From Pyrobaculum aerophilum str. IM2 (GTDB taxonomy: Archaea; Thermoproteota; Thermoprotei; Thermoproteales; Thermoproteaceae), in contig NC_003364.1 of NCBI RefSeq assembly GCF_000007225.1, positions 1,680,001 to 1,712,000 on the forward strand: 32,000 nt of DNA, read 5' to 3'. Numbering within the stretch: the stretch's first letter is position 1; each line of letters starts with the position of its first letter. Position numbers and translations under genes: made by a program. This document shows positions 1 to 29,939 of the stretch, one piece after another. Below the pieces are notes generated by a model. It was not told where the DNA came from and made no database searches. It was given only the letters and a program-made list of their open reading frames with translations.

Positions 1-1447
1 ATAGGAAGATCCCGCCCGGCTGTTGTATTCTGCCGAGAAGCGCGAGGAGTATTCCCACGGCTCTCCACGTCTGCGGAGAATTGCTATAACGGGGGTCGTG
101 CCACCCTATTGGGGCAACCGCTCTGTATTTGGCGACTATTTCCGCCGCCTTTTTAAGGTCGTCGATATTCACATCGGCCTCTCTCGCCGCGGCCTCAAAG
201 TAGTCCTCCACGCCGTGTTTTTTAGCAAGCGCCGCGAGATTCGCGTCTACCCACTCTTTTAATATAGTCAACGCCGTTTTCACCCTCGCTACAGTCCCGT
301 CTCTAAGCTGGACTTCAAACTGGCCAAATAACGCGGCCGTCTTTGCCACGGCGTCTGGTGCCGGGGCGTTAGTTGCCAAGTCCCACACTACGTACGCAAA
401 ACCGGCGGGCTCTGCCATATTATATTTATCCCAGGCCACCTCAGAGGCCAATAGCGGCAACCCGTTCTCTTTTATTAAAAACGGCGCATTGGTAAATGTC
501 CTTAAATAGTGCTCTACGTAGTAGCCGTTGTCGAGGACGTATTTAATAAAGGCCAGGAGGACAGCTAAATCCGTGCCAGGCTTCACTGGAAGCCACACCG
601 TGGCGTAAGACGCCGTTTCGTCAAACACCGGGCTTAATACTACTAACTTAGCGCCTTTTTTCACCGCCTCCATAAACCGCCACGTGTCTGATACCACGCC
701 TGCGCCAATTACGTTTCTCCTAATTACGAGTATTGCCTCTGCCTCTTTGTAGTCAACGCATACAGTATGGGCTTGGTGTCCGTGGCCCCACGTAACCCAG
801 TGGCCGAGGTAGCGGGGATATGTGCAGTACGGGTTGTCAAAAGTTATTTGACCACAGCCGTAGGTATCTGCAAATCTGCGGATGGAAACAGCGGCGCGCA
901 TAGACGCCGTTGGGCCCCAAGCGCCGAAGAGAAACGTCATTGCGTGCCGCTCGTTATTGTCGGCTAGTTCTTTAAGCTTCTTAGCAATGATCTCAATTGC
1001 TGTTTTCCAGTCAACTTCCACCATGTCGTCATACCCCCCGCGGCTCTGCATTAACTGCCTCTTAGCCTCCTCCCAGCTTATTTTGCCCTCTACCCAGTCG
1101 ACTAGAGCCCTCCTCGCCATGGGCTTCTTAATGGCGTCTGGGTTGAGCCACGCCGTGAAAGTGCCCGAGACACCCCTAGCGCATATCCCCATGGCGCTAG
1201 TGGGGGCGTTGGTATTAGGCCTTATCCTAACGGGCTTTCCATTTACTACGTTGATATATATGGCGCACTGCGCCATACACATGCCGCATATTGAGGGAAT
1301 AGAGACGATATTTGCCGCGGGCGCCTCGGCCTTTGCGCTAGCCGCCTCAGCCGCCGCTTTTAATAAAATTCCCGACACGCCTCCCAATACGCCAATAGTA
1401 ATGCCTGTTTTCAAAACATCTCTTCTAGATATAGACGTACGCTGCAT
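1..1447 (-). CDS. Molybdopterin (DMSO-reductase family) oxidoreductase catalytic subunit, first ~482 codons; the 3' end runs off the window
   Basis: Absent from the ORF track because it stays open to the window edge. My translation from ATG 1447 gives MQRTSISRRDVLKTG (twin-arginine signal), then PSICGMCMAQC...GICARG (CX2CX3C..C FeS motif). It is clearly paralogous to the 816-aa ORF at 7942 (NAPFLIK, PGTD blocks). The + strand ORF 882..1517 is its antisense shadow. Confidence 0.85.
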   Translation of the reverse strand, partial: MQRTSISRRDVLKTGITIGVLGGVSGILLKAAAEAASAKAEAPAANIVSIPSICGMCMAQCAIYINVVNGKPVRIRPNTNAPTSAMGICARGVSGTFTAWLNPDAIKKPMARRALVDWVEGKISWEEAKRQLMQSRGGYDDMVEVDWKTAIEIIAKKLKELADNNERHAMTFLFGAWGPTASMRAAVSIRRFADTYGCGQITFDNPYCTYPRYLGHWVTWGHGHQAHTVCVDYKEAEAILVIRRNVIGAGVVSDTWRFMEAVKKGAKLVVLSPVFDETASYATVWLPVKPGTDLAVLLAFIKYVLDNGYYVEHYLRTFTNAPFLIKENGLPLLASEVAWDKYNMAEPAGFAYVVWDLATNAPAPDAVAKTAALFGQFEVQLRDGTVARVKTALTILKEWVDANLAALAKKHGVEDYFEAAAREADVNIDDLKKAAEIVAKYRAVAPIGWHDPRYSNSPQTWRAVGILLALLGRIQQPGGIFL

Positions 1448-1473
1448 TAATTCTTCAATCAATATAAACTGTG

Positions 1474-1539
1474 TTATTCACTTTGTACATCTAAAGGAAA
1501 AGAAGTATATTCAGTGAAAAATCATGTACACTGTATATA
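1474..1539. promoter_or_regulatory. Operator-like elements upstream of the oxidoreductase gene starting at 1447: TTATTCACTTTG (1474-1485) and the inverted repeat TATATTCAGTG-N12-CACTGTATATA (1506-1539)
   Basis: Read directly from the sequence. The TATA (minus-strand TTTATATT, 1461-1470) lies between these elements and the ATG. The same 11-mer and 12-mer recur at 7863-7902. Confidence 0.5.
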
Positions 1540-1541
1540 AT

Positions 1542-1979
1542 TTAATCGCAGTTTACTTTTATGAACTCCTGCCACTCCTCGCTCTTACAACCTATTCCCG
1601 CAAAGAGTCCCTTCACAGTGTCCCTTACTTGCGGATCGTTTGCGCGAAATGTGTCGGGACTAACTCTGTACACGCCCATTACCTGGGGCCCTATTCTTGC
1701 CATAATGTCAAGAAATTCTTTTGGCTTGTAATAAGCCTTGAGAAGCATTCCTGCATTAACTCCCACTTCATAACCCGCGCGGCCGATGCCTATATTCCGC
1801 GCTATTCTGCAAATGTGGATCATATCAAGTGGATCATACCCGTGATCTACTGCGTCTATTACAGCTGAGAAAACTGCAGAGATCACCTCGGAAGGCCTCC
1901 TCCCTATTTTTCTTATTTTTAAAGAAAACTCTTCAGCAATAGATCTCTCAACGGCAATTCTCGCATATTTTGAAGGCAT
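1542..1979 (-). CDS. Hypothetical protein (145 aa), paralog of the 197-aa ORF upstream
   Basis: ORF with a TATA-like ATTTTTATATG about 18 nt upstream of the ATG on the minus strand. The N-terminal RIAV..(D/S)(I/V)A.E segment and the C-terminal GC...V.C ending are shared with ORF 2014..2607. No family recognised. Confidence 0.5.
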   Translation of the reverse strand: MPSKYARIAVERSIAEEFSLKIRKIGRRPSEVISAVFSAVIDAVDHGYDPLDMIHICRIARNIGIGRAGYEVGVNAGMLLKAYYKPKEFLDIMARIGPQVMGVYRVSPDTFRANDPQVRDTVKGLFAGIGCKSEEWQEFIKVNCD

Positions 1980-2013
1980 GGATTTTATTGTACATCACAT
2001 ATAAAAATTGTAC

Positions 2014-2607
2014 CTAGCAAGTGACTTCTGCCGTCACGGTATTTCCCTCATATATTGTCTTAACGCTACAGCCGAATTGTCTTATTGCCTCCTCAGCGAA
2101 AAAGCCGAGACATTTTACAGACATCTCCCCAGTTGTAGTGAATACTATTCTCCACGTGTTTCCGCTTTTGCTAAACGACAGCCTCGCCACGGGCAACATG
2201 GAGAAGAATTGTGAGACTACTGCCATAAATTCGCTAAAACTTCTAAATTCACTTGCAACTACCTTGCCGAATTTCTCCCCAGTCTCTCTAAGAAATTTCT
2301 CAATTTCCTCGTCTTCACAAACTTTCCACTTCCTCGCCACGAGCTCTAAATACGACAACGGGACGGGCACTACGTCAAAAGCTAATACTTTTTCCATAAG
2401 CTTGAACATCTCCAAGGCCTTTGACGGAGTGATCCCCCTCCTTAAAAGCTCCACGGCGAGTTTTAAAGAGTCAGAGGCCAGTTTAACTACAGAAAAGCCC
2501 TGAGATTTGGCCATTGTAGAAACCTCTTTTGCCACGTCGCTATCAACTGGGACTGTTGTGCGGGACACAGCTATTCTCTTACCTCTCTTATAAATCTTTA
2601 AGCCCAT
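2014..2607 (-). CDS. Hypothetical protein (197 aa), paralog of the 145-aa ORF
   Basis: Long ORF with ordinary amino-acid composition. It shares N- and C-terminal motifs with 1542..1979. The + strand ORF 2021..2503 is a low-complexity antisense shadow. Confidence 0.55.
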   Translation of the reverse strand: MGLKIYKRGKRIAVSRTTVPVDSDVAKEVSTMAKSQGFSVVKLASDSLKLAVELLRRGITPSKALEMFKLMEKVLAFDVVPVPLSYLELVARKWKVCEDEEIEKFLRETGEKFGKVVASEFRSFSEFMAVVSQFFSMLPVARLSFSKSGNTWRIVFTTTGEMSVKCLGFFAEEAIRQFGCSVKTIYEGNTVTAEVTC

Positions 2608-23564: not shown

Positions 23565-24560
23565 CTATGTGTTTATATATTTAATGTAGGGGAGGATTAG
23601 GTGTTCGTGTACTTGTCGCGGCGGTATGTTAAGCTTAACCGAATACTGGCCAAGCGGCGTGCCGCCGAGTTTAGTCAGCTCGTACGCGGCTAGCCCGACG
23701 ACGCAACTGCCCTGTCCGCATCTAACTACGATTTTATACGGCGGAGGGGGGTATATGTGAGCTATTAACGTCCCCCGGCTGTAATAGCTCCTGACCTCCA
23801 CCGCCATTCGCCCCGCCTCTACCACTGGGATGAAAGTCCTGGGGTGGAAGTTCTTAGCCCCCACTTTGGCCGCCTCAACGGCCTCTTGTACGGACAACAG
23901 CGGCAATACATAGGCCTCTTGCACCTCCCTGGGATCGGCCGTCATTACGCCTGGGGAGTCTGTGACTAAGGACACTTTCCTAGCCCCCAGCTCTTTGCCT
24001 ATATAAGTGGCCGTATAGTCGCTGCCGCCCCTCCCCACTGTGGTGAACCTGCCCTCTTTATCCCTTCCAATAAAGCCGGTGACGACAGCCACAGCGTCTG
24101 GCCGTGACATCTCCTCCTTATGCTCCAGCGCAATTGGCTCGGCGTTTCCGTAATTGCTATCTGTGAGCATCGGCGCGATGAAGAGCTTGGCCTCAATCCC
24201 CATTTTCTCAAGAACTGCGTGTAGCATTGTTGCTGAGAGCCTCTCGCCAAATGACGCGAAGTAGTCCGCAGACCACGGCGCGTGCGGAAGCCTTAGGGCG
24301 TACTCAAGCTCTTTTAACAAGGGGGCGATCCTCTCCTCCACCCCCAGCCCTCTGGCGATAGAGATGTGCCTATGTGCCAACTCCTCGTATAGCAAATAGC
24401 TCCTAGTTTTTTCAAGTTGTAACAATAAATCCGTCACGCCCTTTACCGCGGACACCACCACCACGGGGGGTTCGCTGTAAGCGGCTACAAAGTGGGCTGC
24501 TTGCACGAAGTCCGCGGCGGAGCGTAGGAGAGAGCCGCCTATTTTTACCACTGGTTTCAT
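23565..24560 (-). CDS. Aspartate kinase, short form (331 aa)
   Basis: Amino-acid kinase fold: VVKIGGSLL, VVVSAVKGVTD, RGGSDYTA and VMTADPR. Only about 60 aa follow the kinase domain. ATGA overlap with the thrC stop codon. Confidence 0.85.
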   Translation of the reverse strand: MKPVVKIGGSLLRSAADFVQAAHFVAAYSEPPVVVVSAVKGVTDLLLQLEKTRSYLLYEELAHRHISIARGLGVEERIAPLLKELEYALRLPHAPWSADYFASFGERLSATMLHAVLEKMGIEAKLFIAPMLTDSNYGNAEPIALEHKEEMSRPDAVAVVTGFIGRDKEGRFTTVGRGGSDYTATYIGKELGARKVSLVTDSPGVMTADPREVQEAYVLPLLSVQEAVEAAKVGAKNFHPRTFIPVVEAGRMAVEVRSYYSRGTLIAHIYPPPPYKIVVRCGQGSCVVGLAAYELTKLGGTPLGQYSVKLNIPPRQVHEHLILPYIKYINT

Positions 24561-25704
24561 TTTTCCAAAAGCTCTATCAGCTCGTCTGCATTTCTCACCT
24601 CCTTCGCTGTTATTTCTATAACGTCGGGGTCTTTCAGCGCATGGCCGGTTACCACGGCCACGGCTACTCCCCCTATATTTAATTTAATCGCCGCGGCTAT
24701 TGACGCGGCGCCCGCGGGCTCCGCCCCTATGCCGTCGCGAGTTGCCAAGAGCCTCTGCGCCTTTAATATCTCCCCGTCAGACACTTTTACGAAAAAGCCT
24801 CCTGACTCCTTCACGGCCCTCAGCGCCTTGGGCCAGTTTATAGGCCTGCCGATTTTAATTGCCGTCGCCACTGTGTTAGGCTCGTCTACAAAAAGCGGCT
24901 CCTCCACGCCGCGGGCCCAGGCCTCGACAAGCGGCGCCGCGCCCTCCGCCTGGACGCCCACCATTTTCGGCAGTTTATTACAAAGCCCCAGCTCGGCGAG
25001 TTCCCTAAACCCCTTCCATATAGCCGAGATATTCCCCGCGTTTCCCACTGGCACTATTACGTAGTCCGGACACCCCAGCTCTTCGTATATCTCAAAGGCC
25101 ACGGTCTTCTGCCCCTCCAGCCTCCACGGGTTAAAGCTGTTTAGAGGATATGCGTATTTTGTCCCGTAGTTAACCACGTAGTCAAGCGCCTTATCAAATA
25201 GGCCGTTTATCATAACAAGCTCAGCGCCGTGTAACGCCGCTTGTATTAACTTCCCCCTGGCCACATTGCCCTTGGGCAAAACTACATAACACCTAAGCCC
25301 AGCCCTAGCGGCGTAAGCCGCCGCAGAGGCCGCCGTGTTGCCAGTAGACGCCACGACGACTTTATTGGCGCCGCTCTCCTTGGCCACAGTCACGCCGAGG
25401 GCCATTCCCCGGTCTTTAAAACTTCCAGTTGGGTTAGCCCCTTCAAATTTTACATACAGATTCTCCGCCAGATTGGATTTCACCAGGGGGGTCCTCCCCT
25501 CTCCCAGGGATATCCCGCTTTTAAGAGGCAACATTGTTGAATAACGCCAGATCCCGTTGCCCTTTGGGGCCCAGACTTTATTACGAACTTCCACTTCAAG
25601 CAAGCCGCCACATTTAGGACATCTATATAGCCGGTAATCTGGGGCAAACCTCTCGCCGCAAGTTATACACTTAAGGCGTACATCGTCCCCGAAATCCCCG
25701 CCAT
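24557..25704 (-). CDS. thrC: Threonine synthase with an N-terminal zinc ribbon; the body frame has no start before TTG 25603, and the only upstream ATG (25704) is in the frame 1 nt downstream
   Basis: PLP-lysine block GANPTGSFKDRG and full-length TS similarity. The Zn ribbon LKCITCGERFAPDYRLYRCPKCGG is encoded in-frame upstream of the track start. ATG 25704 lies 18 nt after ATTATATATA. Confidence 0.85.
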
Positions 25705-25722: not shown

Positions 25723-25759
25723 TATATATAATCTTTTTGCAGAAGAAAAACTTATATAG
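25723..25759. promoter_or_regulatory. Back-to-back divergent BRE/TATA elements for thrC (minus) and the lysX-like operon (plus)
   Basis: Minus strand: GCAAAAAG-ATTATATATA, then 18 nt, then ATG 25704. Plus strand: GAAGAAAAA-CTTATATA, then 19 nt, then ATG 25778. Confidence 0.55.
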
Positions 25760-25777: not shown

Positions 25778-26451
25778 ATGGATCTGGGGCCAGAGGGGAA
25801 AGTGGGGCGATTTACGTCGTTACAGACAGCCCCACTGTATATGACAAGGTAATAGTTGACGCCCTATCCTCTAAAGGAAAAAGGGCATCTATTCTCAATG
25901 TCTCCGAAATTCCTGTCTATAAAATACGCGGAACAGCGCTACTCCGGCTGAGCAATCCGTACGCCGCGGTGATTTACGGCCAAGTTGCCGAGGCGAGTAT
26001 AAACCCGCCTGAGGCGATATCCTCAGCCTTAAATAGACTCGCTTGGATTTCTAAATTCGGCCCCCCTCACGTGATAATCTCCACGGACTATTCTGTGGAA
26101 AAAGTGGAGCTTGAAAGGCCGTGGTTTTTAATGACTGCTTGGAGGCTCGAAATAGACGGCTCTGTCACCAGCGTAGAGGGGGCGAGGAGCGTGTTAGAAC
26201 ACAGGATGTACATGAAAAACCCGCTATCTAAAGTCTCCTTAGTCGTTCCCAAGCCTCACAGAACGATATCTGTTTTCGCCACAGTGAAAAACGCCACCGG
26301 CCTCGTGTCTGAGGTGTTGAGCCACTTGGGCCTTTTATATGCGAGAGTAGTGCTGGGGGACTACGGCGGGAGACATTTCGTAATAGACGTCGACCCGGTG
26401 CCGAGGCTTGAAAACAAAGAAGAGGCTCTGGCGGTGGCGGAGTTGTTATGA
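25778..26451 (+). CDS. Divergent LysX/ArgX-like ATP-grasp homolog; the body frame lacks a start before GTG 25969, and ATG 25778 is in the frame 1 nt downstream
   Basis: The body frame, open from 25771, reads GAIYVVTDSPTVYDKVIVDALSSKG...INPPEAISSALNRLAWISKF...HRTISVFATV...GGRHFVIDVDPVPRLEN. This is collinear with LysX/RimK-type ATP-grasp proteins but about 60 aa shorter. ATGA overlap with argC. Confidence 0.55.
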
Positions 26452-27503
26452 AAGTCTGTATTATAGGAGCGTCGGGCTTTGTGGGCGGGGAGCTTTTGAG
26501 AATACTCTTGCAACACAGCGGCGTGGAGGTGGTCTGTGCCACTTCTAGAAGATTTAAGGGGGAGTATGTATACAGAGTTCACCCCAATCTGAGGGGGTTC
26601 ACCCAGTTGAAATTCGTAGAGCCCTCAATAGACGCGGCGTTGAAAGCCGATGTGGTATTCCTCGCGTTGCCGCACGGTGAGTCTGTCAAATGGGTCCCTA
26701 AGCTCTACGAGTCTGGCGTCGCGGTTTTTGACCTCAGCGCGGACTTCAGGCTGAAAGACCCCAACGCATATGTGGAGTGGTATAAGTGGCCGCAGCCTCA
26801 CCCCTATCCTGACCTTTTACAAAAAGCTGTGTACGGCCAGCCGGAGCTACACAGAAGCGAACTAGTAGGGGCTAAGCTCGTGGCAGTGCCCGGCTGTATG
26901 GCAACGGCGTCTATATTAATGCTGGCGCCTTTAGCTAAACACGGCTTGTTGGGAGAGACGCCGCCTGTGATAGACGCCAAAATTGGATCAAGCGGGGCTG
27001 GGGCTGAGGGGTCAGTGGTAGATCTCCACAGCTTTAGGACATATGTAGTGAGGCCCTACGAGCCCGTGCACCACCGCCACATAGCCGAAATTGAGCAAGA
27101 GCTCAGCCTCCTCGCGGGGAAAAGAGTTAAAGTGGCCTTCACCCCGCACGCAGTCGATATGGTCAGGGGGATTTTCGCCACAGGCCACGTCTTTGTGGAA
27201 AAAATGCCCACTGAGGCCGACATGTGGAAAATGTATAGATCTATGTACGGAGATTCTAAATTTATACGTATTGTAAAGGACAGATTGGGGATTTCCAGGT
27301 ATCCAAATGTAAAATACGTACTGGGTTCTAATTTTGTAGATATAGGCTTTGAGTTAGACCAGAGGCTTAATAGGCTGGTGACCTTCTCGGCTATAGACAA
27401 TTTAGTGAGGGGTGCCGCCGGGCAGGCAGTACAGGCTTTTAACGTGGCAATGGGCTTTCCCGAGGACGAGGGCCTTAGGTACATACCGCTGGCGCCAGTA
27501 TGA
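26448..27503 (+). CDS. argC: N-acetyl-gamma-glutamyl-phosphate reductase family enzyme (ArgC/LysY)
   Basis: [18 protein letters not shown] Rossmann motif, active-site PGCMATA, and C-terminal [13 protein letters not shown]. Confidence 0.9.
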
Positions 27504-28285
27504 TCGTCGTAAAAATTGGAGGATCGGTAGTGTGTAAAGACGCCTCAAAAGTTATTCAAAACCTCCCTAAATACGCAGATAGGGCTGTTGTTATACACGG
27601 AGGGGGGTGTCTGGTGAATGAGTTGTTAAAAAGAATGGGAATAGAGCCGAAGTTCTTGACGCACCCAGGCGGGCTTGTGAGCAGATATACCGACTGGGAG
27701 ACTTTGAAAGTCTTTGTAATGGCTATGGGCTGGATTAATAAATACATCGTCGCCTCTTTACACGGCCTCGGAGTCCAAGCCCTTGGCCTCACGGGGGCTG
27801 ATCTCGGCGTGGTAGTGGCCAAGCGCAAGGAGAGGGTTTTAGTTATCGACGAGAGGGGGAGGCAGAGGGTTGTGGACGGGGGATACGTGGGGAAAATCGC
27901 TGAAATACGCGTTGACAAATTAACGCCGCCTCCGCTGAAAGTCCTGGCCCCAGTAGCCGTGTCAGAAAAGGGAGAGCTTTTAAACATCGACGGGGACCAA
28001 CTGGCCTTTGACGTAGCGAGGGAGGCGAAGGCGGAGAGGCTTATTCTACTCAGCGACGTGGAAGGCCTCATCCTCGGGGGAAAAGTAGTGCCGCGCCTCA
28101 CACCTGAAGAGGCGGAGAAACTCGTAAAAAGCGAAGAGGTTAGGGGCGGCATGAAGAGAAAACTCCTCATGGCCTCTGAAGCGGCCAAGTTGGGAATTGA
28201 AGTAGTTATATCAAGCGGCCTGGTTGATTCCCCAATAGATGCGGCTCTTAACGGCGCTGGAACTCACATCATTAAAAACATATAG
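27500..28285 (+). CDS. argB: Acetylglutamate kinase family enzyme (ArgB/LysZ)
   Basis: [26 protein letters not shown] and GGMKRKL motifs. ATGA overlap with argC. Confidence 0.9.
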
Positions 28286-28355
28286 TACTTTATACAAGTT
28301 TTTAAAGAATATTAATAGAGAGTAAAGTTTATATACTAGTCTAAAATTTCTCTTT

Positions 28356-28541
28356 ATGGCAACCCAAAAACTAGTGGTTCAGTGCAAGGTGTGCGGAACG
28401 GAGTTTGAACTCCCCGAGGACGTCATGGACGGGGAAATTGCCAGTTGTCCCACATGCGGAGCCCGTTATATTGTGAGACTTAAAGGCGGGTCTGTCACGT
28501 TGGAGGAGTTTAAGGGAGATGTGGAGGACTATGGAGAGTAA
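28356..28541 (+). CDS. lysW: LysW-type amino-group carrier protein (61 aa)
   Basis: Zinc ribbon CKVCG...CPTCG plus the acidic C-terminal tail EDYGE (canonical EDWGE). ATG about 19 nt after GTTTATATAC. Confidence 0.85.
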   Translation: MATQKLVVQCKVCGTEFELPEDVMDGEIASCPTCGARYIVRLKGGSVTLEEFKGDVEDYGE

Positions 28542-29735
28542 GTCGGGGCGAGCAAGATAGTACTGGCCTACTCCGGAGGCCTAGACACCACAGTTGCAGT
28601 TAAGTGGCTCTCTGAGAAATTCGGCGCCGAGGTCTACACCGTTACAGTAGACGTTGGGCAAGAAGACGACTTTTCAAAAATAGAGGAGAGAGCTTATAAA
28701 GCGGGGGCTGTTCAACATTTTTACATAGACGCTAAGAGGGAATTTGCCGAGGAGTACATAGCCAGGGCGATATTAATGAACGGCATGTACGAGGGAGTAT
28801 ACCCCCTGGGCACTGCCCTAGCCAGGCCTCTAATTGCGGCGAAAGTCGTTGAGGTTGCCCGGAGGCTGGGGGCCGACGCGGTGGCGCACGGCTCCACTAG
28901 TAAGGGCAATGACCAGGTTAGATTCGACGTTACTGTAAAGGCCCTGGCGCCCGACCTCAAGATAATCGCGCCGGCCAGGATCTGGGGAATGACGAGGGCT
29001 GAGGAAATCGAATACGCCAAACGCCACGGCTTGCCAGTGGGCGAGGAGCATAAAAAGTACAGCATAGACGACAACCTCTGGTCTAGGTCAATAGAGGGGG
29101 GACCTATCGACGACCCCCTTGCAGAGCCCCCTGAAGATGCATTCAAATGGACGGTGTCTCCCGACAAAGCGCCGCACGACCCCACTTATTTAACTATCGA
29201 ATTTGAGAAGGGGCTCCCCGTGGCAGTGAACGGAGAGAAGATGAGCCTCGCGTCCATTATTTCATTGCTCAACCACGTCGGGGGCGCTAACGGCGTGGGG
29301 AGAATCGACCACATTGAGAACAGACTAGTGGGGTTTAAAAGCCGGGAGGTATACGAGGCCCCTGCGGCTGTTATACTCTATCACGCCCATAGAGACTTGG
29401 AAAAAATGGTCTTAACGCCTAGGGAGCTTCGCTTTAAGCACTACGTCCTAGACCCCCAGTGGGCTGACTTAGTCTACCAGGGCCTCTGGGTAGAGCCCCT
29501 CCGCAACGCCCTGGAGAAAGCCGCTGAGGAAATGGAGAGGTGGGTAAGCGGGGAAGTGAGAGTGAAGTTGTACAAGGGGTCTTTGTGGGTGGTGGGAAGG
29601 GAGTCTCCTTACGGCGGGTATAGCAAAGAGTTAGCCGATTACAGCGCCGGGTGGTATCCAAGCGACGAGGAGGCCAGGGGGTTTATTGAGATGTGGAGCC
29701 TCCACTCCCTCACAGCCCTCCGCCGTAGAAAATAG
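28531..29735 (+). CDS. argG: Argininosuccinate synthase; the enzyme frame is open from 28542 but has no canonical start before 28776, and ATG 28531 is in the frame 1 nt downstream
   Basis: The in-frame N-terminus [20 protein letters not shown] (ATP pyrophosphatase motif) is encoded at 28551 onward, upstream of the track start. [12 protein letters not shown] and the rest are intact. GGAGG lies 3 nt before ATG 28531, which overlaps the lysW end. Confidence 0.85.
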
Positions 29736-29783
29736 TCTATATAATTAGAATAAGGTTTTATATTGTATGTTTTTCTAGGGGCG

Positions 29784-29939
29784 ATGGGGCAAAGAACTGT
29801 GGTGTGTCCAAATTGCAAAAAACCGGTGAAACCCGTGGAGTGTAACAGAAAAAACCAAACGAGGCGCTACGTGGTTATTACCTACTGCTGTCCTAAATGC
29901 GGAACAGAACTATTAACTGAGAGGGTTGAGGTACACTAA
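29784..29939 (+). CDS. Small basic zinc-ribbon protein (51 aa), not in the ORF track
   Basis: MGQRTVVCPNCKKPVKPVECNRKNQTRRYVVITYCCPKCGTELLTERVEVH. CPNC..CPKC knuckles. ATG 18 nt after GGTTTTATATTG. The stop TAA overlaps the argH ATG (TAATG). Confidence 0.5.
   Translation: MGQRTVVCPNCKKPVKPVECNRKNQTRRYVVITYCCPKCGTELLTERVEVH

Follow-up and report, generated by a model that had tools for sequence, protein, structure and literature searches.

Introduction

The described systems closest to the one considered here are the autoregulatory frameshift of prfB, the gene for release factor 2 (RF2), leftward frameshifting at hungry codons, leader-peptide attenuation in bacteria, the frameshift of the archaeal fucA1 gene and the arginine attenuator peptide of fungi. 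This article deals with a leader at the head of a lysX-like operon of Pyrobaculum aerophilum str. IM2, in a stretch of 32,000 nucleotides (nt; contig NC_003364.1, positions 1,680,001 to 1,712,000 of the forward strand, referred to below as the window), and with similar leaders of the argG and thrC genes in the same window. In each case a short open reading frame (ORF) with its own ATG overlaps the 5' end of the gene, while the coding sequence proper (the body) lies in the -1 frame of that ORF and has no start codon near its N-terminus. Comparison with related archaea suggests that the leader of the lysX-like operon is probably a translational sensor, acting through programmed -1 ribosomal frameshifting that responds to starvation.

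In prfB, as is proposed for this leader, there is a short upstream frame in which the P-site tRNA slips at a slow A-site codon, product abundance decides whether the full protein is made, and the slip rescues a main ORF without a start. The prfB shift differs in being +1, on a CUU_U slip sequence, at a stop codon that is read by a protein factor, with a Shine-Dalgarno stimulator, and it is bacterial and restricted to a single gene family. Hungry-codon leftward (-1) frameshifting in Escherichia coli (Gallant and Lindsley 1992, as cited in PMC8211752) has the mechanism proposed here, in that the A site stands vacant at a sense codon under starvation and the P-site tRNA re-pairs one base upstream, but it is known as a provoked error in reporter genes, with no leader and no pathway codon, and not as a conserved natural device. 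The fucA1 gene of Saccharolobus solfataricus, also a crenarchaeon, has a cellular -1 frameshift that joins two ORFs (PMC1616953, PMC8211752) and, according to a 2021 review, is the cellular -1 case in Archaea that has been shown by experiment (PMC8211752); it differs in using an A_AAA_AAT heptamer in the middle of the gene, far from the start, with a putative downstream stem-loop, and it has no known sensing role and is not conserved as a device across pathways.

Bacterial attenuation (trpL, thrL, hisL, pheL) likewise employs a short leader with codons for the end product, and the speed of the ribosome sets expression. The E. coli thr leader uses threonine plus isoleucine codons, as does the thrC leader of the window. 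Attenuation depends, however, on terminator and antiterminator hairpins and on coupled transcription, whereas the Pyrobaculum leader overlaps a gene that lacks its own start codon, and the leader's output would be a change of reading frame. The fungal CPA1/arg-2 upstream ORF (uORF), which encodes the arginine attenuator peptide, is also short and also places an arginine biosynthesis gene under translational control by arginine, but free arginine is sensed there by a nascent peptide that stalls the ribosome at termination, in the setting of eukaryotic scanning and with no frameshift. By analogy, then, the device proposed here may be described in its logic as RF2-type A-site sensing combined with the hungry-codon leftward shift and leader-peptide attenuation.

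To our knowledge, the means by which hyperthermophilic crenarchaea match amino acid synthesis to demand are largely unknown, few regulators have been characterised, and bacterial-type attenuation is lacking. If the proposal is true, these leaders would be the first case in which hungry-codon frameshifting serves naturally as a metabolic sensor, and a functional counterpart of bacterial attenuation where the latter is lacking, with a codon-level sensor placed in the first dozen codons of the mRNA and no protein factor needed. Several further cellular -1 frameshifts in Archaea would then be added to fucA1. No account of such a device was found in the full-text literature, with subscription-only papers outside the search, or in two reviews, PMC8211752 (2021, on archaeal recoding) and PMC5009743 (2016), neither of which has anything on frameshifting in Pyrobaculum or Thermoproteus.

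Leader and Frame Architecture of the lysX-Like Operon

The initial annotation described a leader of 24 codons with three G_GGG tracts that are followed by Pro, Lys and Arg codons, and this is exactly what the sequence contains: from 25778 the plus strand reads ATG GAT CTG GGG CCA GAG GGG AAA GTG GGG CGA TTT ACG ... AGG TAA, the stop codon occupies 25850-52, and each of the three tracts has the phase NNG_GGG_XXX relative to the ATG. The frame ascribed to the enzyme was also borne out, since the body encoding GWHGSGARGESGAIYVVTDSPTVYDK... is in the -1 frame, open from 25771 to the TGA at 26449-51, and its first ATG, GTG or TTG is GTG 25969, at codon 66. A -1 slip at any of the three tracts gives a 224-amino-acid (aa) product, and the predicted trans-frame N-termini (MDLGAR.., MDLGPEGESGAIY.. 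and MDLGPEGKVGAIYVVTDSPTVYDK; the frame-junction product is also written MDLGPEGKVGAIY..) agree with the translations originally given.

The codons ATG, GTG and TTG make up 7.3% of the internal codons of genes in the window, and from this frequency a run of 66 codons without any of them has a probability of about 0.007. Long start-less N-termini are found in only three real genes of the window, lysX-like, argG and thrC, and the chance of the three stretches together is about 3e-7. The six G_GGG tracts of their leaders share one common phase relative to the leader ATG, and at all six sites the P-site tRNA on GGG can re-pair fully with the GGG that lies one base to the left. In the predicted trans-frame products, 1 to 10 residues precede the start of the family profile or of the folded domain. 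Taken with the conservation described below, this arrangement indicates that expression of these genes very probably needs a -1 frame change at the tracts.

Promoter spacing places the leader ATG at the beginning of the transcript. The distance from the start of the TATA box (TTTATATA or similar) to the leader ATG is 25-28 nt in almost every lysX-like and thrC locus, and the same spacing is seen at ordinary first-in-operon genes of the window, for example lysW (TATA box at 28328, ATG at 28356), asd and the genes for acetyl-CoA synthetases. It was in Pyrobaculum that leaderless mRNAs were originally reported (PMC6028130). Because the TATA spacing matches that of leaderless genes, the leader ATG is the expected 5' end of the mRNA, and transcription would start there. 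An alternative start at the upstream ATG 25767, followed by a +1 shift, was considered on account of database proteins that begin MRGHG.. or MWGHG.., and was rejected: this ATG or GTG is only 9-16 nt from the TATA box, and hence probably untranscribed, and it is absent from many species and from Thermoproteus.

Conservation of the Leader

The comparison drew on 19 loci from genomes and 26 from metagenomes of relatives, in addition to ten same-species contigs. Homopolymer indels are common artefacts, and three apparently broken genes lie within 4 kb of each other, which would fit a one-base sequencing or assembly error in a G run, or a decaying pseudogene. The comparative record makes this barely credible. 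The ten same-species contigs, which are independent (metagenome-assembled genomes, ENA and Logan assemblies), have identical tract lengths and the same out-of-frame ATG, and most of the few substitutions that they carry 5' of GTG 25969 leave the body-frame residue unchanged. The same G-tract design, with identical tract lengths, is present in more than 50 independent loci of Pyrobaculum and Thermoproteus, including complete genomes and metagenomes, and the leader is in the same state in the two genera, at 43% protein identity of the lysX-like bodies. The body shows purifying selection. In all, 31 distinct promoter-plus-leader variants from the two genera retain the TATA box and the ATG, carry between one and three NNG_GGG_XXX sites and have their body in the -1 frame.

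Two observations had been named at the outset as likely to overturn the frameshift reading, a run of five G in independent data and orthologs with an ordinary start and no leader. Only G4 was observed, at all three tracts, and every Pyrobaculum and Thermoproteus ortholog has a leader. A canonical body-frame start near the N-terminus is lacking in almost all of these orthologs, in which the body frame contains no ATG, GTG or TTG between the upstream stop and the tracts; in the exceptions (e.g., L016 and L018) a GTG or TTG is found only inside the promoter or farther upstream. No tract-length variants occur among the lysX-like loci compared, and the variation that does exist affects the number and nature of the sites: the first tract is GGGA in L018, AAA is replaced by GAA in L006, the CGA of site 3 is replaced by CCA in L046 (a change that is synonymous in the body frame), L019 and L050 have one site, and L021 has two. 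In Vulcanisaeta, the distant homolog of the lysX-like gene (26% identity) starts in the ordinary way, at a leaderless GTG.

The distribution of substitutions also bears on where translation of the body begins. Among nine Pyrobaculum species, hardly any variation occurs from +1 to +33 of the leader, whichever codon phase is considered (entropy 0.12-0.18), and from +34 an ordinary coding pattern in the body frame appears, with an entropy of 0.99 at third positions and 0.28 at second positions. Since +1 to +33 are almost invariant in every codon phase, the constraint on the leader is stronger than that on coding sequence, and since body-frame wobble begins at +34, translation in the body frame begins right after the tracts.

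These patterns are relevant to the proposal that no recoding takes place, with translation beginning at a non-canonical ATA, ATC, ATT or CTG codon, or at the internal GTG 25969 to give 160 aa, and with the ATG ORF being irrelevant. Public annotation lends this some colour, as orthologs of ArgG at NCBI start at ATC, ATA, ATT and, judging from the N-terminus, apparently also a Leu codon, Ile codons occur near the N-termini, and on many contigs the internal GTG is taken as the start of the database protein closest to the lysX-like product (98% identity), which leaves a fragment of 160 aa. Close orthologs, however, have been given start codons of different kinds at different positions (MGASK.., MAYSGG.., MNRVV.., MALAYS..), no near-cognate codon holds a conserved position ahead of the first zinc-ribbon cysteine of thrC, and in a leaderless mRNA the start codon has to stand at the 5' end, the place held by the out-of-frame ATG. 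Such starts would also leave the all-phase invariance of the leader unexplained. With GTG 25969 as the start, the N-terminal third of the fold, which is conserved and has body-frame wobble periodicity, would be lost, and this codon is ruled out as the true start by conservation, by that periodicity and by the fold of the N-terminal 60 residues. Initiation without recoding is thus considered very unlikely.

The public records themselves show that the device is unrecognised. Records of ArgG and ThrC from Thermoproteales (P0024-P0041, P0063-P0109, P0144-P0170) have mutually inconsistent N-termini, with non-canonical starts, truncations that lose the ATP loop or the zinc ribbon, and extensions through the promoter. 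For annotation, this means that ArgG, ThrC and LysX-like proteins of Pyrobaculum, Thermoproteus, Caldivirga and Vulcanisaeta have been deposited truncated, with invented starts, or extended into promoters.

Leaders of argG and thrC

The leader of argG reads ATG GAG AGT AAG TCG GGG CGA GCA AGA TAG, and its ATG lies within the last codons of lysW. The argG body has no canonical start for 78 codons, a stretch that takes in the binding loop, and upstream its frame runs without interruption from the stop codon of lysW. As a conventional ORF, argG would encode 319 aa and lack the first 80 residues, and this truncated form scores 441 bits against the argG profile; the predicted slip product matches the same profile from position 4, with 556 bits. 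In Pyrobaculum the argG body frame is the frame of lysW and the -1 frame of the argG leader. Read-through of the lysW stop, giving a LysW-ArgG fusion, was rejected as a general explanation, as argG has its own promoter and a like leader in Thermoproteus, Caldivirga and Vulcanisaeta.

The leader of thrC reads ATG GCG GGG ATT TCG GGG ACG ... TAA (25704-25663) and begins 26-28 nt after the start of the TATA box. No start codon occurs in the thrC body for 53 codons, the zinc ribbon included, and the slip product matches thrC profiles from position 2. The thrC and lysX-like leaders are divergent, with back-to-back TATA boxes in a spacer of 73 nt.

Both leaders recur in relatives in forms that differ in the slip codon, in the order of sites or in the context of the gene. 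The argG leader is ATG GCG AGT AAA TCG GGG CGA in Pyrobaculum and ATG CCT TCG GGG CGA in Thermoproteus, where it follows the gene's own promoter. In Vulcanisaeta and Caldivirga, ArgG is recorded at NCBI as MALAYSGG.. from ATC, ATT or ATA codons, there is no canonical start in the body frame before the ATP-binding loop, and argG is in the -1 frame of a short ORF whose first codon comes 27-29 nt from the beginning of a CTTATTAAT box. This leader is ATG GAT AAC CTG GGA CGA AGA ... in Caldivirga (G_GGA_CGA_AGA; L059/L060, positions 960-1005) and GTG AAT NNN YTA AAC CGG in Vulcanisaeta (A_AAC_CGG; L057, L061 and L062, positions 960-1005), and in the latter, synonymous changes in the body frame immediately downstream (CCC/CCA, ATC/ATT) place the shift at A_AAC_CGG. 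For thrC, the Pyrobaculum leader is NNG GGG ATT TCG GGG ACR, in which ACG and ACA alternate as the Thr codon while the body-frame residue changes, and two unassigned metagenomic contigs with Thermoproteus-like leaders have ATG CYT TCG GGG ACA ATA, with Thr before Ile.

Short ORFs of a related kind, which contain cognate codons, accompany argG in Thermocladium, where the leader encodes MDNLERR and its TGA stop overlaps a canonical TTG start (TTGA) with argG in the -1 frame (L058:981-1004), and thrC in Vulcanisaeta, where METRN is followed by a TGA stop that again overlaps a canonical TTG start (TTGA) in the -1 frame (L029, minus strand). These uORFs may be a form of the frameshift device that works by termination and reinitiation, or a forerunner of it.

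The frame could in principle be corrected in the RNA, if the polymerase slips on G4 and adds one G, possibly by reiterative transcription near the start site. The tracts are homopolymeric, those of the leaderless cases lie 6-30 nt from the presumed transcription start, and an inserted G gives the same protein as a -1 slip of the ribosome. Four bases are, however, very short. Known cases of polymerase slippage involve runs of about 7 or more. Correction in the RNA also has no need for six tracts in a single phase relative to the ATG, the Pyrobaculum argG site is internal to an operon and far from any transcription start, no run of four identical bases is present in the G_GGA leader of Caldivirga or the A_AAC leader of Vulcanisaeta, and the cognate codons are left unexplained. 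Transcriptional slippage is accordingly regarded as quite unlikely.

Sensor Codons and the Biosynthetic Pathways

The codons that follow the slip sites match the pathways in which the genes act. In the lysX-like leader they are GGG_CCA, GGG_AAA and GGG_CGA in Pyrobaculum and GGG_AAA, GGG_CCA and GGG_CGA in Thermoproteus, the same set in a different order. The suggestion in the initial annotation that Lys and Arg codons relate to the LysW pathway is strengthened by the cognate codons at argG (Arg) and thrC (Ile and Thr). The Pro codon, which was left unexplained there, fits as that of an ornithine-derived product: proline is derivable from ornithine in Thermoproteus (PMC3189178), and Pro, Lys and Arg can therefore all be products of the LysW route. 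Under a null model derived from the window's own genes, the match of sensor codons to pathway has a probability of about 5e-5, a figure to be read as an order of magnitude only because the amino acid categories were picked after the data had been seen. Among the Arg codons CGA is used least here (3%), and no Pro codon is used less than CCA.

In the argG leaders of five genera, the next codon is always one for Arg, although four different Arg codons are used (CGA, AGA, CGG and CGT), the slip codons vary (GGG, GGA and AAC) and the body-frame residues differ. As Arg is kept through all of these changes, the amino acid identity of the next codon appears to be under selection, and its retention across slip-site types is the strongest argument for this. 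If the sensor proposal is true, the codon after the slip site would predict the controlling amino acid of a gene.

Several observations weigh against the proposed frameshift sensor. AAA, ATT and ACR are not rare codons. Shifted to the body frame, CCA and CGA become GCC and GCG, the two commonest Ala codons, and part of the codon identity within Pyrobaculum and Thermoproteus is therefore possibly a by-product of the body sequence. Site 3 has CCA for CGA in L046, with the body frame unchanged, and single sites have been lost in L006 and L018. In-frame G_GGG occurs at 12 per 1000 codons in ordinary genes of the window; because it is so common, the tract alone cannot be highly slippery and context must matter. 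All candidate sites are at leader codons 3-10, and it may be speculated that slipping is easier while the nascent chain is still very short or where the 5' end of the mRNA is free. Finally, no conserved downstream stimulatory structure was found by RNAalifold on 15 leaders (-2.5 kcal/mol, 4 pairs), and the single-sequence fold of the lysX-like leader region has a z-score of -0.17.

The codon-usage points and variant L046, together with the fact that the architecture demands only a frame change, speak for a -1 frameshift that is obligatory but constitutive, serving a fixed low expression or persisting as a frozen accident, with no regulatory meaning in the next codon. Against this stand the retention of Arg at argG through four Arg codons, three slip codons and five genera with differing body residues, the preservation with rearrangement of the sets {Thr, Ile} at thrC and {Pro, Lys, Arg} at the lysX-like gene in two genera, and the low null probability given above; multiple redundant sites would, moreover, be hard to account for under a fixed setting. 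A constitutive shift is accordingly judged unlikely, and the evidence leans somewhat towards a leader that senses its cognate aminoacyl-tRNAs.

Proposed Mechanism

In the proposed mechanism, the mRNA would begin at the leader AUG (25778), about 27 nt after the TATA box, and a ribosome initiating there would, after 3 to 9 codons, have tRNA-Gly on a GGG codon that is preceded by G. With prompt decoding of CCA, AAA and CGA, it would continue in frame past the three sites and stop at the TAA (25850-52), so that no enzyme is made; across the leaders as a whole, termination would come after 6-38 codons. Without a slip, the ATGA-coupled lysY and lysZ would be poorly translated. When the cognate aminoacyl-tRNA is scarce, the A site would remain empty and peptidyl-tRNA-Gly could re-pair with the GGG one base upstream, after which a well-supplied Ala or Glu codon (GCC, GAA or GCG; Asp in other leaders) would be read and the LysX/ArgX-like enzyme produced. 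With three sites in series, a shortage of Lys, of Arg or of Pro (via ornithine) would turn the operon on, and sensor codons in series would thus form an OR gate, for Pro, Lys and Arg in the LysW operon and for Ile and Thr at thrC, with Arg alone at argG. That the leader slips into the enzyme frame, as originally suggested, is supported on comparative grounds. The comparisons show the conserved architecture, the lack of another start, the common phase of the tracts and the cognate codons, whereas the transcription start, the slip itself, its regulation by amino acid supply and its polarity on the ATGA-coupled genes are inferred.

The leaders share some features with known signals and lack others. 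Like a -1 frameshift signal, they combine a short zero frame and a long -1 ORF in a layout that is conserved among orthologs, and like attenuators, all three genes have a short leader ORF enriched in end-product codons. They do not contain the X_XXY_YYZ heptamer of tandem slippage, as only the P-site tRNA can re-pair (the A-site codon after a -1 slip at the lysX-like sites is GCC, GAA or GCG); they also lack the downstream structure of canonical -1 signals and the hairpins of attenuators, and no terminator-like element was found on the sense strand. Searches for a riboswitch, a known RNA family or a conserved RNA structure found none, with no Rfam family matching the leader. A G-quadruplex was rejected as a common principle because the G4 tracts number only three (lysX-like), two (thrC) and one (argG). 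A generalised scan for other slippery homopolymers and families, run over the window and the loci up to L056, yielded these three families and otherwise only artefacts. The chances seem evenly balanced that the leaders form a new class of "frameshift attenuators" in Thermoproteales, situated mostly at the 5' end of leaderless mRNAs and controlling amino acid synthesis.

As a separate observation on RNA structure, GTGGGGC at the third tract (25802-25808) is complementary to GCCCCAC at 25829-25835 (+), which encodes Ser-Pro-Thr in the body; the pairing is conserved at the nucleotide level in Pyrobaculum and not in Thermoproteus, in a region of ordinary fold energy (z = -0.17).

The LysX-Like Protein and Its Operon

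The product of the body had been described as ATP-grasp-like, a designation that holds by fold and not by sequence profile. Pfam and NCBIfam searches gave no match to the body, and in a PDB profile search the best hit, to 5k2m, had an E value of only 1.3. An AlphaFold2 model built from the homolog alignment (predicted local distance difference test score 89, predicted template modelling score 0.85) has its first eight residues disordered and its first strand at IYVVT. The top PDB matches of this model in Foldseek were 3vpb (ArgX of Sulfolobus tokodaii), 3vpd (LysX of Thermus) and 5k2m (LysX/ArgX of Thermococcus), with E values of 3e-13 to 1e-11, template modelling scores of 0.74-0.80 and about 15% identity. 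As its structural neighbours are ArgX and LysX, the model identifies the protein as a shortened, divergent member of the LysX/ArgX type of ATP-grasp proteins, about 60 aa shorter than LysX. The 23 homologs found all come from Pyrobaculum-type sources and have called lengths of 121 to 238 aa, a spread from which it follows that gene callers disagree on the start.

In the window and in related loci, the lysX-like gene heads a lysX-like/lysY/lysZ/lysW cluster (Table 1). The best match of lysZ is the model for a bifunctional [LysW]-aminoadipate/[LysW]-glutamate (Lys/Arg) kinase. Translation of lysY is probably coupled to the lysX-like stop, and that of the aspartate-kinase-like gene to thrC.

Table 1. 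Positions in the window of the three leaders, their genes and adjacent elements.
Feature	Position	Strand	Remarks
TATA box CTTATATA of lysX-like operon	25751..25758	+	27 nt 5' of leader ATG
lysX-like leader ORF	25778..25852	+	24 codons plus stop; MDLGPEGKVGRFTSLQTAPLYMTR, then stop
Candidate slip/sensor site 1	25786..25792	+	G_GGG then CCA (Pro)
Candidate slip/sensor site 2	25795..25801	+	G_GGG then AAA (Lys)
Candidate slip/sensor site 3	25804..25810	+	G_GGG then CGA (Arg)
LysX/ArgX-like ATP-grasp protein	25786..26451	+	-1 frame; predicted product 224 aa
lysY/argC	26448..27503	+	ATG overlaps lysX-like stop (ATGA)
lysZ, [LysW]-aminoadipate/[LysW]-glutamate kinase	27500..28285	+	ATGA overlap with lysY
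lysW carrier protein	28356..28541	+	Ordinary leaderless ATG gene; last codons hold argG leader ATG
argG leader ORF	28531..28560	+	9 codons; MESKSGRAR, then stop; GGAGG 4 nt 5' of ATG
argG slip/sensor site (candidate)	28545-28551	+	G_GGG_CGA (Arg)
argG body	28545..29735	+	-1 frame of leader; predicted product 401 aa (MESKSGASK..)
TATA box ATTATATATA of divergent thrC operon	25723..25732	-	
thrC leader ORF	25663..25704	-	13 codons; MAGISGTMYALSV, then stop; G_GGG_ATT (Ile) 25699-25693, G_GGG_ACG (Thr) 25690-25684
thrC body	24557..25699	-	-1 frame of leader; predicted product 382 aa (MAGISGDDVR.. or MAGDFGDDVR..)
Aspartate-kinase-like gene	23565..24560	-	ATG overlaps thrC stop (ATGA)

In Vulcanisaeta (L029), a standard LysX/ArgX gene of 298 aa (813-1709, minus strand) adjoins a short LysX-like paralog (1807-2544, plus strand), and as a standard LysX is present alongside it, the short LysX-like protein is a second, distinct ATP-grasp member of the cluster and not its sole LysX. 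Pyrobaculum oguniense TE7 (L022, L015) has two lysX-like copies about 8 kb apart, of which the second, beside thrC, matches from residue 41 only, is called as 148 aa and may be a decaying paralog. In the closest relatives (L001-L010:1-2700, 98% identity, set against 24557-25700 of the window), a cluster of PaREP1, nucleotidyltransferase and HEPN genes replaces thrC upstream of the lysX-like operon, and promoter and leader are unchanged from about 60 nt 5' of the ATG.

Between argG and argH of the window, a 58-aa zinc-ribbon ORF (CPNC...CPKC; 29763-29939, plus strand) ends at the argH start and has no LysW C-terminal motif. In Thermoproteus sp. AZ2 (L023, minus strand, about 3935), an M20-peptidase-like gene, probably lysK, is broken at a G6 run (AGG_GGG_CCG), an interruption that may be an assembly error, as coverage of the contig is only 7x.

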